A program made the translations under genes and the position numbers. The notes beneath the pieces are model-generated. The model was not told where the DNA came from. It made no database searches and worked only from the letters and a program-made list of their open reading frames with translations. Positions 12,283-56,354 of a stretch of DNA of 64,000 nt are shown piece after piece. The DNA lies in the NCBI GenBank assembly GCA_964016885.1, contig OZ024746.1, positions 14,570,001 through 14,634,000 on the forward strand, in the 5' to 3' direction. Numbering within the stretch: position 1 is the stretch's first letter; every line of letters starts with the position of its first letter. The DNA is from Eledone cirrhosa. Its lineage: Eukaryota.

Positions 12283-12700
12283 GTAGGAGGTGAGTTTTAT
12301 TGTAGTACAATAAAGCAATGCAGATATCGGATAAGAAGCACTCTACAGTTTGTGGGACTGGAGTATGCATAATATAAGATCAAAAGATGGTTAAAGGAGT
12401 TCAATATATTTTATTATGCGCATTTCAAAAACAAACATCATCAAACAATAATATTTGTGTTTTCATCAGATAAAACAGGAGAACATGATATGAAGGCTAA
12501 AAAAACACTTGTTGATAGTGCAGTTGTTGATATGTTGATTTAAAACTGCACTATCAACAAGTGTTTTTTTAGCCTTCATATCATGTTCTCCTGTTTTATC
12601 TGATGAAAACACAAATATTATTGTTTGATGATGTTTGTTTTTGAAATGCGCATAATAAAATATATTGAACTCCTTTAACCATCTTTTGATCTTATATTAT
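12283..12700 (-). mobile_element. Fold-back hammerhead element, family 1 (PLE pLTR-like)
   Basis: 157-bp inverted arms 12369-12525/12544-12700 with an 18-nt loop; 86-nt tail 12283-12368; (TA)n on both sides; hammerhead in each arm. Confidence 0.9.
12593..12661 (+). ncRNA. Minimal type-I hammerhead ribozyme (mirror copy on - strand at 12408-12476)
   Basis: gttttat-CTGATGA(12600-12606)-stem II (caaatattatt/gatgatgtttg)-GAAA(12643-46)-tgcgca-TA-ataaaat. Stem I is fully paired; stem III is the palindrome atgcgcat. Confidence 0.88.
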
Positions 12701-13477
12701 ATATATATATATATATATATATATATATATATATATATATATATATATATATATATATATATATATATATATATACATATATATATATATACATATATAT
12801 ATATATATATATATATATACATATATATATATATATATATATATATATATATATATATATATATATATATATATATATATATATATATATATTGTTATAT
12901 TTGGGGGGGGGTCATATTTGCGTAATATTGCCAGAATTAATAACAGAACACACTCACTGTTTGGTTGGTTTTCGCTTCTCGCTGTCTTTTATATATATAT
13001 ATCTGCGATCTAACTTACTCGGTCCTCAATGTTGCCATTGACTGACCGGCGGTCAAAAATAATACAGATACAATATAGACAAACACATATATATATAGTT
13101 TACATAATTTACATAAATCTTATATATATATATATACAAGCAAATTATAAACGTAAACATGTAAGTATGTTTTTGAAACGGTGCGCGAGTTTGAAATTAG
13201 AAATTAGAAAATATAAGCTTTCACCGTATTTTAGACTAAAGAAATTTCAAGCCTGATAGTGGGGTTTATAACCCTCGGAGAAATGGAAAAAGATGAGTGT
13301 TGCCGTACATATTATTGGTGTTGTTGTTACTGCTGTTGTCATTGTTGTTGTTTGTATATGTATATATATATGTATATATATATGTGTATATATATATATA
13401 TATATGTTTATATATATATATATATATATATATGTATATATATATATATGCATATATATATACATATATTTATATAT

Positions 13478-14010
13478 GGAACTCTTTTAACCATCTTTTG
13501 ATCATATATTATTTATACTCCAGTCCTACAAACTGTAGAGTGCTACTTATCCGATATATATATATATATACACATGTAGGAGGTGAGTTTTATTGTAGCA
13601 CAATAAAGCAATGCAAATATCGGATAAGTAGCACTCTACATATATATATATATATATATATATATATATATACACACATATACATATACATATATATATA
13701 TATATATATATATATATATATATACATACATATATATATATATATACATATATATATATATATATATATATATATATATATATATATATATATATATATA
13801 TATATATATACATATATACATATATACATATATATATACACATATATATATATATATATATATATATATATACATATATATATATATATATATATATATA
13901 TATATATATATATATATATATATATATATATATATATATATACATGTAGGAGGTGAGTTTTATTGTAGCACAATAAAGCAATGCAAATATCGGATAAGTT
14001 GCACTCTACA
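13478..14010. mobile_element. Three further family-1 fragments in (TA)n: 13478-13557 (+), 13576-13640 (-), 13946-14010 (-)
   Basis: Direct matches to 12283-12402 (gtaggaggtgagttttattgtag...cactctaca; aactc..ttaaccatcttttgatc). Confidence 0.85.
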
Positions 14011-14568
14011 TATATATATATATATATATATATATATATATATATATATATATATATATATATATATATATATGTATATATATATATATATATATATATA
14101 TATATATATATATATATATATATATATATATATATATATATATATATACATATATATATATATATATACATATACATATATACATATATATATATATATA
14201 TGTGTGTATGTATATATATATATATATATATATATATATATATATATATATATATATATATATATATATATATATATGCGTGTGTCTGAGTGTGTGCGAT
14301 TCTCCCTTAAGATCATATCTGAAAGATTTTATTCTAGGTTTATATTTTTTTCTCTCTTTTTGATATTAAATACATTATATTTTATACATTTTGACCTGCA
14401 GCGTTCCTTGTAACGAAATTATATTTATAATGACCTAGTTGCTATAGCGTAAATCATTTGGTTGATTTTTTTTTTCTGAGTGAATATGTAAATATAGATA
14501 CTTTGGGTGAGATGTCACATGATTTGATAGACATGATGGCAAGTACGTTTACAGAAGCAAAAGCAAGA

Positions 14569-14706
14569 ATTTAAATAAAGTAACATTATCCTTCTTGTCA
14601 TGTATAAATACAAACACACACACACACATATATATATATATATATATATATATGTGTGTGTGTGTATTCATACATGACAACATGGATAATGTTACTTTAT
14701 TTAAAT
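14569..14706. repeat. Inverted repeat centred on (CA)n(TA)n(TG)n
   Basis: atttaaataaagtaacattatcc..ttgtcatgtat pairs with atacatgacaa..ggataatgttactttatttaaat, with few mismatches. Confidence 0.85.
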
Positions 14707-53464: not shown

Positions 53465-53856
53465 TATATATATATATATAATATATATATATATATATAT
53501 ATAATATATATATATATATAATATATATATATATATAATATATATATATATATAATATATATATATAATATATATATATATAATATATATATATATAATA
53601 TATATATATATAATATATATATATATAATATATATATATATAATATATATATAATATATATATATATATATATATATATATATATATATATATATATATA
53701 TATATATATAATATATATATATATATAATATATATATATATATATAATATATATATATATATATATATATATAATATATATATATATAATATATATATAT
53801 AATATATATATATAATATATATATATAATATATATATATGTATATATATATATATA
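53465..53856. repeat. Interrupted (TA)n array
   Basis: Directly visible. Confidence 0.95.
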
Positions 53857-54074
53857 GAATAACAAGTTACCGTTATAGATAATCCAGTTAGAGGTTGTGA
53901 GTACTCTGCGTCTCGTGGATAGTTTTAACGTACGGCTTTGTTTGACTCAACAAGATGCTTCCATAGTTATGCAGCGAGTTCGCGGTATTTCCTATGCAGG
54001 TTAAACTTGGAGTAATAATAGTGAAAGAATGAAAAGTAACATGGTTGGCTGTACAATAAGGGGCTTTATTTCAA

Positions 54075-54288
54075 GTACTGACAATTGTTTCATTGATCAG
54101 GTGAGTCTAGAGGTCGCTAATCGCTTGAAGTTGCGTCACTCGATCTCCAATACATTATTTACCTCTGATTAATAAAGTACCAGTCACGCACTGGGGTCGA
54201 TTTAATCGACTTTTCCCTCCCCCCAAATTGCTGGCCTTGTGCCTATCGTAGAAATCATTATTTACCTCTGATTAACACATCAGAGTAC
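54075..54288 (-). ncRNA. Hammerhead-like ribozyme with ~80-nt stem II, split by a SINE insertion
   Basis: After removing the SINE and one TSD: GTACT-CTGATGT-gttaatcag...ctgatcaat-GAAAC-aatt-GTC-AGTAC. One core deviation (CUGAUGU). Confidence 0.65.
54173..54255 (+). mobile_element. 5'-truncated SINE family A with 20-bp TSD
   Basis: TSD cattatttacctctgattaa at 54153-54172 and 54256-54275. Confidence 0.9.
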
Positions 54289-56354
54289 GTAGATATAAAA
54301 ATAATTCACTCGAGGCAAGACATATATAGAGAAATAGCGTATAATCAAAACAATAACATCAATAATAAAATATATATGGTACATAGGTAGAGAAGTTACA
54401 GATGTAAAAGTAAAAAGAAAAAGATAAGATAGGATACATTAAAAAAGTAAGAAAATAAGAAAATGGAAAATATAAAGAAAGAAATAAGGATAATGAAAGC
54501 ATGTAAGTACAGAGTATGTTTGCGGTGGTGGTGAATAAGTGTTCTTATAAGGATTCTTTGGTGGGTTTAGTGCTAACATGAAAGACCAAATTCGAAATAT
54601 ACATAGATGCGTATATCTCTACACGTATCTATGTATATTTGAAATCAATGAAACAATTGTCAGTACTTGAAATAAAACCCCTTATTGTACAGCCAACCAT
54701 GTTACTCTTCATTCTTTATATATATATATATATATATATATATATATATATATATATATATATATATAATGAAGCATTTCAGTGATGAAAAAGGTGTTAA
54801 TGTTCACAGAGAAGAAATCAATGAACACTATGGAAGTACACAATCGCGCGCACTCGCACATGCACAACATTTACAGAGAGAGAGAGGGGGGCACGCATAT
54901 ACGAAGACAATTGTCTTCCACTACGACAAGTGAAAAGTAAAAGTAGGCAGCTTCATATATTTCAACATTCCAAAAGTGACTGTTAGGTTTATAGTTTCTG
55001 TCATCATTCTACTATTGTTTACGTAAATAAGACTAATAACTATGGAAGGAATTCGAAAAGAATAATCGATGATATACAAAACATTTATATTATTTGGAAA
55101 ACAATTGACTAATAAACTATGAGACGAAATCTAAAATATAATCTATTATACAGAAAGCATTTATATAATTCGCAAGACAATTGAACGATATCGCAGACGA
55201 AATCTATTATAGATACAACGTATTATTCATATCATTCGGAAGATATTTCACTGAAAAATAATATCATTATTCCCATTTTCAATCTACTTTCATATATAAT
55301 GGTTATTATGTTATAATTTTTTATATAAATCTGTATATTGAAATTAAAATTAAAATTAGATGTGACAGTCTGGAGTCATAAAAAATTCAGCTAGAAATTA
55401 TTGAAAGCTGAATGACGAGAATGTGTTTGCGCCTGCGTATAAACTGTTGTCCGGTTTGGAGTCCGTTTTCATTGAGGTTTAGTATATTATTTTACATTTG
55501 TTATGAGAAGTCCCTACAATGATTTATTTATATAAATATATAGCGTAGATACAATTTAAAATATCTCAAAACCATTTAGAAACTGCTTTATGATATACGA
55601 TGATCAGTGTTTATGAACTTACAACAAAGGTATTTGGAGAAATTGAAAACATTTGCTTATTATGCACGTTCCTTACAGCTTTTCAATTTGATCGCTAACT
55701 TTATCAGCTTCATCGGGGAACTTTACAATCAAATGCTGGACACCTCATTTAGTAAAATCATGAGAGTAATTTGTGTGACAAAAGATTGGAAGGCGATGTC
55801 TTGCTGTAGAGTTAATTGGAAAATTGGAAAATTCAATTGCATTTGTAAATAATGTTATATAAAGGTTTAGTATCCACTTCTGAAGAACGAAATTTATATG
55901 TGATTAAAGTCTATTTCTGAAGTAGAAAACGAAGAAAAACTAGAGAATTAAGCTTTCAATTCACTCTTGTTTAGTATTTGATGAAAAGAATGTAATTTCT
56001 CATGATAAATTGGAAATGGCTGAAGTTGTAATCAATAGGTTAATTGAAGTGAATTTTATTAGATAGTTAATGGACTTTATTAGAGAGTCAATGAAGAGAG
56101 ATCTAGTCTGAACTTCTGATTTGATCTAAACAGACGACAAAAAACCTGAAATCTACTAATTCTATAATGGCGGGAGATTCCTATTTATGTCGTTACCGTT
56201 CCGCTTAATTTCTTACACGTCAACGGCTGCAGGAAAAGAAACATGTGTAGTACAAAGATTTCAGAGTACCAACGATTTGGAAAGTAAGATATCTGTGTTG
56301 TGTAGTAGTAGTAGTAGTAGTAGTAGTAGTAGGAGGAGGAGGAGGAGGAGGAGT

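Follow-up and report, generated by a model that had tools for sequence, protein, structure and literature searches.

A repeated predicted bulged hairpin and a one-of-each pairing rule at the ends of fold-back Penelope-like insertions in Eledone cirrhosa

What fixes the ends of fold-back insertions in simple TA repeats, and why only one side of each carries an unpaired tail, are questions raised by a stretch of 64,000 nucleotides (nt) of the Eledone cirrhosa genome (assembly GCA_964016885.1, contig OZ024746.1, positions 14,570,001–14,634,000, forward strand), referred to below as the window. The host genome is AT-rich and 3.0 Gb in size. Self-comparison of the window, run after masking of simple repeats, recovered all fold-backs reported in a preliminary description and revealed a sixth (40471-41058). 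Each is embedded in (TA)n and has a tail of 80–167 nt on one side, and the arms, including those of the sixth family, are 96–100% complementary. On their sequence, the fold-backs are Penelope-like retroelements of the Hydra clade that were inserted into (TA)n with truncated 5′ ends. Their copies end a few bases before one of two copies of a predicted bulged hairpin, designated hairpins 1 and 2, and nearly every classifiable pair joins one copy ending at each. The end positions before hairpins 1 and 2 are termed site 1 and site 2, respectively, and the insertions of the window are the following.

12283..12700, minus strand: family 1 insertion; sense copy to site 2 (tail 12283-12368) and inverted copy to site 1, (TA)n on both sides
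39996..40412, plus strand: family 2 insertion; inverted site-1 copy and sense site-2 copy (tail 40326-40412)
40471..41058, minus strand: sixth-family insertion, absent from the preliminary description; identical layout, 80-nt tail
41122..41640, plus strand: family 3 insertion (tail 41501-41640); its source is a 2.6-kb unit without a Hydra-like open reading frame (ORF)
41674..41817, plus strand: family 4 insertion; inverted site-1 copy 41674-41719 and sense site-2 copy 41731-41817
53857..54717, minus strand: family 5 insertion; long sense site-2 copy (tail 53857-54023) and short inverted site-1 copy 54644-54717

At 40471-41817, directly after the family-2 insertion, the insertions of three families succeed one another within 1.4 kb and share TA runs.

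In four families the sense copy had been described as continuing past the end of the inverted arm, through a short AT-rich patch, into ACTCC. The pentamer was confirmed at 12364-12360 (minus strand), 40330-40334, 41506-41510, and 54013-54009 (minus strand), where it starts 4, 4, 5, and 10 nt past the arm end in families 1, 2, 3, and 5, whose arms are 96–98% complementary and whose tails measure 86, 87, 140, and 167 nt, respectively. The ACTCT reported at the equivalent place in family 4 is likewise present (41743). ACTCC occurs 58 times on both window strands, and its presence in at least four of six families would have a probability of ~1e-8 assuming independence of the families; this figure is conditional only, since the families are homologous. 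They had been called sequence-unrelated, which holds for the DNA, which is unalignable (best match 20 nt), but not for the encoded proteins, which are 37–57% identical; the five own-genome proteins placed in a tree form one clade. The pentamer itself is variable: the sixth family has GCTCG, and ACTCT, GCTCT, or ACTCA stand at other places, so that RCTC is the constant part.

By its sequence, ACTCC is the 5′ strand of a predicted bulged hairpin, RCTC-stem-T(T/C/A)-GAGY, i.e. half of the feature. Thus, the signal proposed earlier does lie at the boundary but was incomplete. Each window family has RCTC with its downstream complement GAGY and 3–5 extra pairs; the 3′ strand is bulged by 2 nt. A scan for this pattern on both window strands gave nine matches, eight of them within these elements and one apparently a chance occurrence (45446). 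The hairpins at the arm/tail boundaries and those of two further families are the following.

12340..12364, minus strand: family 1 hairpin 1, ACTC-CAG/CTG-TA-GAGT
40330..40349, plus strand: family 2 hairpin 1, ACTC-CAA/TTG-TT-GAGT
40507..40531, minus strand: sixth-family hairpin, GCTC/GAGC form with a TG bulge
41506..41565, plus strand: family 3 hairpin 1, ACTC-CGTA/TACG-TT-GAGT, long loop
41743..41766, plus strand: family 4 hairpin 1, ACTC-TACT/AGTA-TT-GAGT
53945..54013, minus strand: family 5 hairpin 1, ACTC-CAAG/CTTG-TT-GAGT, long loop
60900..60919, minus strand: seventh-family hairpin, GCTC-TGT/ACA-TT-GAGT

A second hairpin was found past the other end of the tail. In family 3, the sequence of three of 30 loci runs on beyond the tail, first through an AT patch and then into a hairpin starting with GCTC. 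This result was taken as a prediction, and read-through past the far end of the other families was sought genome-wide with motif-free patterns. Recurring read-through in families 1, 2, 4, and 5 consisted of a patch of 7–9 nt followed by a GCTC hairpin; that of family 5 was recovered by a pattern permitting variation, the single-copy pattern having given no match. For the sixth family, a read-through pattern built on the single window copy had no match in the genome. A second hairpin therefore lies just past the tail end in all five families, and both ends are thus internal to the element, with a hairpin a few bases 3′ of each. The second start that had been proposed 85–170 nt downstream is real as a site, but it too is internal and has its own GCTC hairpin in all five cases. 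The two hairpins are spaced by 78–167 nt in these families, and the order along the element is hammerhead-like core, hairpin 1, hairpin 2, start codon.

The ends of dispersed copies were collected from the window and from 131 sampled segments, each of 10 kb and placed at a round-number coordinate (four of them beside the window), 1.374 Mb in total. BLAST gave 146 pieces of the five families that were at least 38 nt long and reached within 150 nt of hairpin 1. In the histogram of their 3′ ends, 62 fall at hairpin 1 and 73 at hairpin 2 (25-nt windows), i.e. 135 of 146 on site, the two end windows together making up 13–20% of the eligible positions. The expectation of two preferred 3′ ends per family is thereby borne out. 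A TA run is present at the 3′ end in 135 of the 146 sampled copies. The last element-matching base lies mostly 2–6 nt before the hairpin, within an overlap of 2–5 nt with the TA repeat (29 exact-seed copies). This offset, along with a T-A-T preference at −6 to −4 in related elements (see below), supports the earlier suggestion that a short AT patch could anneal to a TA primer. Both solo copies that had been said to stop at the arm/tail boundary do so, falling 7 and 8 nt short of the motif position, but this boundary is not exclusive: solo copies end at the far site in 28 cases, at the boundary in 17, and elsewhere in five.

In the public run X2, which may be the source of the assembly, the listed loose ends into (TA)n lie 4 nt (351 contigs) and 6 nt (77 contigs) ahead of the two hairpins of family 4, respectively. 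In run X6, which belongs to another study, one contig terminates at the far site. One RNA run contained 0.07 of the words, its contigs falling only on the low-complexity part, away from the hairpins. When repeat ends were collected with no motif as the starting point, 56 end families had read-through, and 12 of these carried the hairpin past the junction (one register being doubtful) vs 0.21 expected from base shuffles; many of the negatives are ends of short interspersed nuclear elements (SINEs), simple repeats, or spurious read-throughs. When fold-backs were taken as the starting point, the hairpin was present in 10 of 38 clusters.

The combination of ends within an insertion follows a nearly strict rule. 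Forty-eight head-to-head pairs were found, five of which belong to the window. Both ends are on site in 43; of these, 42 join a site-1 copy to a site-2 copy, and none is of the 2+2 type (p = 5e-12 vs the 50% ceiling of independent choice). Use of one site per target strand, as previously proposed, is therefore seen in 42 of 43 classifiable pairs, which points to priming of complementary DNA (cDNA) by both target strands. As a replication, 30 family-3 loci were picked for a site-2 copy: the opposite-strand partner ends at site 1 in 14 (one being the window's own), reads on in one, and ends at site 2 in none. Six of 19 long-insertion loci have both outer ends visible, and all six are 1+2; among the others, one could not be classed owing to its complexity, another contains a short 1+2 pair, and in the remainder at most one outer end is visible.

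The 5′ reach of the two copies was compared in the 42 pairs. The site-1 copy is longer in 29 and the site-2 copy in five, and they are equal in eight. Since a site-2 cDNA has to traverse the tail first, the excess of 29 over five is not taken to indicate a trailing polymerase. In eight pairs the site-2 copy stops within the tail, and hence these pairs have no fold-back. In pairs of family 4 (e.g. at L043, L044, L073, L107, and L110), both 5′ ends cluster 55–73 nt before hairpin 1, inside the hammerhead-like stems.

Head-to-head inversion is known from L1 twin priming, in which both target strands prime cDNA on the element RNA, one primer annealing at the 3′ poly(A) and the other at any internal match, and the inverted and non-inverted parts do not overlap. 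The non-overlapping form is found here in eight of the 42 pairs; in contrast to L1, both sites are fixed and internal, their joint use is near-obligatory, and the arms mostly overlap. Twin priming, which had been put forward as the source of the fold-backs, thus agrees with the use of one site per strand but in its L1 form covers just those eight pairs. The duplicated arm of the others requires an extra step, such as a renewed pass over the template or the use of a second RNA or copy of the pseudo-long terminal repeat (pLTR).

The nature of the elements was deduced from their coding sequences. An ORF starts ~25–75 nt past hairpin 2 in families 1, 2, 4, and 5. In families 1 and 4, open frames of 786–821 amino acids lie downstream of hairpin 2, and the homologous frames of families 2 and 5 are broken or partial. 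Hydra-clade elements are generally <3 kb long; the ORFs here measure 2.2–2.4 kb, but in the tandem array L233 family 4 has a period of ~3.54 kb. The proteins carry RW[R/I], DKT, YRDD, CxCx5C, plus, at the C terminus, a GIY-YIG-like region containing CxxC and CxH; CCHH is absent. According to the available text of PMC8557442 (section 11), RW[K/R/I], DKT, CxCx5C, CxxC, and CxH without CCHH define the Hydra clade. At the position where the clade has RWK in place of GxKF/Y, the proteins of this genome have RLRWR, RLRWI, or RIRWR, and the database relatives RWK; SDKT, with the DKG to DKT change, is present in families 1, 2, and 4. The CxCx5C linker, CxxC and CxH around a conserved E and N, and the absence of CCHH were read from an alignment of families 1 and 4, and the putative GIY-YIG endonuclease is assigned by its motifs. 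A Pfam search of these proteins gave no match, and PDB sequence searches gave nothing useful. The predicted model of the family-4 protein (pLDDT 87) has its best fold match in telomerase reverse transcriptase (TERT 3du5, E 5e-9). Database relatives numbered 2154 at E ≤1e-20 among 7998 candidates. In a midpoint-rooted tree of own-genome and metagenome proteins only, with no named Hydra references, the five proteins of this genome form one clade separate from 70 metagenome proteins (support 1.0).

The pLTRs, tandem copies, inverted 5′-truncated copy, and one-sided tail are all present, as in endonuclease-bearing (EN+) Penelope-like elements. A putative hammerhead core, CTGATGA...GAAA, precedes hairpin 1 by 104–113 nt in families 1–3, and families 4 and 5 have variant cores. 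An Rfam scan gave 139 matches, none reaching the gathering score and mostly microRNA models on TA runs and palindromes, and did not call the hammerhead.

12423..12469, minus strand: family 1 hammerhead-like core, CTGATGA to GAAA
40226..40266, plus strand: family 2 hammerhead-like core
41393..41434, plus strand: family 3 hammerhead-like core

Family 3 differs in its content. Its full unit (L179:2601-5557 and L180:2385-5312) has ~2.63 kb between direct repeats, with internal duplications, and lacks similarity to the Hydra-like proteins, yet retains the hammerhead core and both hairpins. Family 3 is therefore likely to be non-autonomous; captured cargo is a further possibility. At L181:3746-5504, a family-3 end is directly adjoined by another kind of Penelope-like ORF, which is C-rich, has an LPKLHKP motif, and is taken here to be Poseidon-like.

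Conservation of the hairpins was assessed in metagenome relatives. An alignment of 28 proteins led to 78 metagenome loci in 53 clusters at 78% identity, 32 of which retain the start of the ORF intact along with 170 nt of sequence preceding it. Within these 170 nt, 26 of the 32 dereplicated loci have a hairpin, and 15 have two or more, located ~120 and ~50 nt upstream of the ORF. The same pattern was found once in five and twice in none of 352 control ORF windows, and five times on the reverse strand. Inner pairs 1–3 of the stem are Watson-Crick in 39 of 50, 28 of 46, and 20 of 31 cases, respectively, with several pair types, all above the maximum of 2000 shuffles; inner pair 4 was not significant. 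In this covariation test no pairing was required by the pattern, but relatedness is not taken into account by the shuffle, and there is some overlap among the 50 matches. The bulge in 102 distinct matches is TT (65), TC (21), TA (12), or TG (4), and T, A, and T are the commonest bases at −6, −5, and −4 (32, 30, and 25 of 50). Both hairpins start with GCTC beyond this genome, an ACTC hairpin 1 being typical of the present families. Two pLTR copies are found at 35 loci (not dereplicated); the contig end cuts 15 of these, and in 12 of the remaining 20 the copy ends 0–6 nt before a hairpin. GAGY is followed by ACT in 74 of the 102 distinct hairpins and usually by RCT in all families, giving a near-palindrome that could mediate RNA-RNA pairing.

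These data are probably best accounted for by hairpins that act as RNA docking sites, with reverse transcription starting a few bases upstream and one hairpin serving each nicked (TA)n strand. The GIY-YIG domain would nick both strands within (TA)n, and each free 3′ end may then pair with the AU patch of 2–5 nt located 5′ of one hairpin and prime at UAU. Two reverse transcriptases of one complex, probably a dimer on a single RNA, would copy toward the RNA 5′ end; since copying would start upstream of the hairpin, a hairpin would never be copied at its own end. The two cDNAs would finally be joined head to head. On this model the two start sites would delimit the tail, and only the hairpin-2 copy would contain it. 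A hairpin-2 cDNA that stops in the tail would give a plain inversion, and one that runs past hairpin 1 a duplicated arm and hence a fold-back. That family 3 keeps the hammerhead core and both hairpins without a Hydra-like ORF was counted in favour of a docking signal.

Small RNA structures that set the start of copying are known in telomerase RNA (the template boundary and stems bound by the telomerase RNA-binding domain, TRBD), hepadnavirus epsilon, and the R2 3′ untranslated region. The present hairpins share this positioning role in the proposed mechanism, and the fold modelled for the family-4 protein is closest to TERT. They differ in being located 3′ of the start, in being repeated, and in that each copy seemingly serves one DNA strand.

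The element class, the inverted pLTR, the tail, and two internal start sites are already in print in the available texts of PMC8557442, PMC3846280, and PMC11167929. Elements of the Hydra clade, as presented in the parts of PMC8557442 consulted, share with those studied here RW[K/R/I], DKT, CxCx5C, CxxC, CxH, the absence of CCHH, a pLTR hammerhead, the (TA)n target, and an inverted 5′-truncated copy with a one-sided tail; the stated tail is 30–40 bp vs a hairpin spacing of 78–167 nt here. Neither a hairpin pair nor a one-of-each rule is described for the clade in those parts. Inspection by eye of the published consensuses there revealed an unremarked hairpin in three of six (two copies in Hydra-1_Ajap, one each in Hydra-2_Ajap and Hydra-2_Amil) and variants in Hydra-1_Crog and Hydra-1_Amil; none was seen in Hydra-1_Obim. 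In full-text literature, subscription journals and figures aside, no repeated hairpin at Penelope ends and no one-of-each rule was found. Thus, what is new here is the cis-signal and the pairing rule, in a known kind of element.

The closest experimental system is PAc, a Poseidon element of Anolis. According to the accessible text of PMC11167929, it nicks and extends both strands of AT-rich DNA in vitro, reverse transcription starts at two internal RNA sites bracketing the tail, and a dimer was proposed from AlphaFold. Two internal start sites flanking the tail, an AT-rich target, use of both strands, and an upstream hammerhead are common to PAc and the Eledone elements. However, PAc belongs to another clade, its start sites lie within the ORF in an AC-rich stem-loop, its initiation is stated to require no homology, and no conserved repeated signal is named in that text (PMC11167929). 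In the PAc RNA of the supplement to PMC11167929, legible only as scrambled figure text, two similar GGC...GCC hairpins were seen by eye, a possible clade-specific counterpart.

Several observations weigh against docking by the hairpins. The hairpins are weak in isolation (z −2.3 to +0.3), and the bulged register is the minimum-energy fold in five of seven folded stretches. Six of the 32 related loci have no hairpin, eight of the 20 informative 3′ pLTR copies and 11 of the 146 sampled copies end elsewhere, and one head-to-head pair is 1+1. Interior G-U vs C-A pairs number 5 to 2, which does not separate action at the RNA from action at the DNA level. The arms overlap in 34 of the 42 pairs, for which a single pass over one RNA is insufficient without displacement or a second template. 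As given in the accessible text of PMC11167929, the PAc start sites are not homologous to the cut DNA and the strands behave alike in vitro, so that the one-of-each rule does not follow from PAc alone; the readable PAc stretch in its Fig. S1 text lacks RCTC/GAGY. Lastly, several genuine (TA)n fold-back families with tails of 33–74 nt lack RCTC/GAGY, and hence the motif is not universal among TA-targeting repeats here. These short-tailed fold-backs probably belong to other Penelope-like clades, perhaps with a signal of their own, and are found at the following places.

L050:2244-2976, motif-less fold-back
L073:1520-1893, motif-less fold-back
L055:2274-2676, motif-less fold-back
L068:6215-6351, motif-less fold-back
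L041:6327-6564, motif-less fold-back

Three other explanations were discarded. The motif is not a chance occurrence, given the ~1e-8 in the window if the families are independent, the 12 of 56 end families, and the 26 of 32 relatives vs five of 352 ORF windows; it did not arise independently in unrelated families, as these are homologous; and the inverted arms are not a miniature inverted-repeat transposable element (MITE) or another DNA transposon, as they extend into Penelope-like ORFs. Of the remaining alternatives, one retains the docking signal but supplies two templates, which would be either a dimerised pair of RNAs or the two pLTR copies of a single tandem transcript; restriction of each strand to one type of hairpin would then fall to an asymmetric complex. 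It would explain the duplicated arm in the 34 overlapping pairs without strand displacement, tandem arrays such as L233 do exist, and the GAGY-ACT near-palindrome (74 of 102) could pair two RNAs. Independent RNAs, however, predict frequent 1+1 and 2+2 pairs, and one such pair was seen in 43; two templates are therefore considered unlikely. More doubtful still is a signal at the DNA level, where the GIY-YIG domain would cut a longer cDNA or double-stranded intermediate just before each hairpin, with subsequent joining to (TA)n. Endonuclease-mediated resolution has been suggested for the tail (PMC8557442, available text), and the D. virilis endonuclease required tail sequence for cleavage (PMC11167929, accessible text), but the latter also reports internal initiation by PAc at sites matching the genomic ends. 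T-A-T conserved directly 5′ of the hairpin is moreover what is expected of a primer-pairing patch, and the G-U vs C-A count favours neither level.

It is very improbable that the hairpins direct cleavage or termination of the RNA immediately 5′ of their own position, so that ordinary end-primed reverse transcription would start from two RNA 3′ ends. Two sharp ends would be expected in that case as well, but the one-of-each rule is left unexplained, and PAc initiates independently of the RNA 3′ end (PMC11167929, accessible text). The least probable alternative is self-priming, in which one site-2 cDNA folds back and copies itself up to site 1; palindromes at inverted junctions are so interpreted in the available text of PMC3846280, and equal 5′ ends in eight of the 42 pairs would suit it. 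Self-priming, however, needs a site-2 copy that reaches as far 5′ as its partner, whereas the site-1 copy is longer in 29 of the 42, and in eight of these 29 the site-2 copy never reaches the arm. The longer site-1 copies and tail-confined site-2 copies exclude self-priming for most pairs and indicate two coupled priming events; self-priming could apply to no more than 13 pairs, those in which the two ends are equal or the site-2 copy is the longer.

The window contains further copies of the same families.

147..300, plus strand: solo family-2-like copy, end at site 1
13479..13557, plus strand: family 1 fragment with hairpin 1 at 13517-13541, off-site end within the tail
13582..13629 (minus strand) and 13952-13999: family 1 tail fragments, end at site 2
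20588..20751, plus strand: solo family-5-like copy, end at site 1
20775..20830, minus strand: family 4 fragment, end at site 1
60649..60781, plus strand: solo family 4 copy, end at site 2

Other repeats were also noted in the window. A 98% perfect palindrome at 20829-21156 has (TA)n in its centre rather than at its flanks, a geometry opposite to that of Penelope-type fold-backs, and a small hairpin insert at 18684-18785 is flanked by TA on one side, its boundary sequence being different. At 56353-56890, a 172-nt unit from a SINE-like repeat dispersed across the window is repeated three times in tandem. Reverse transcriptase-like ORF fragments at 16949-17911 (minus strand), 35743-39130 (plus strand; with a restriction-like endonuclease end), and 51662-52354 (minus strand) presumably derive from other non-LTR retrotransposons.

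The closest mobile relatives of telomerase are Penelope-like elements, and how these elements recognise their RNA and how the inverted copy with a one-sided tail arises are stated as open in the available texts of PMC8557442 and PMC11167929. A signal of ~20 nt that is common to many Hydra-type elements, has a measured offset to both ends, and is used in a near-strict one-of-each manner makes mutations testable in the existing assay for a related element. It also provides a simple annotation rule for the ends of a very abundant repeat class. A wider reading, to which somewhat less than an even chance is given, is that double internal priming is obligatory in Hydra-clade elements, the hairpin pair loading one RNA with two reverse transcriptase-endonuclease subunits, one for each nicked strand. 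If so, double internal priming would explain both the tail and the inverted pLTR, probably across all Penelope-like clades by means of clade-specific hairpins, and any RNA with a hairpin pair, such as that of the ORF-less family 3, could be written into (TA)n sites.

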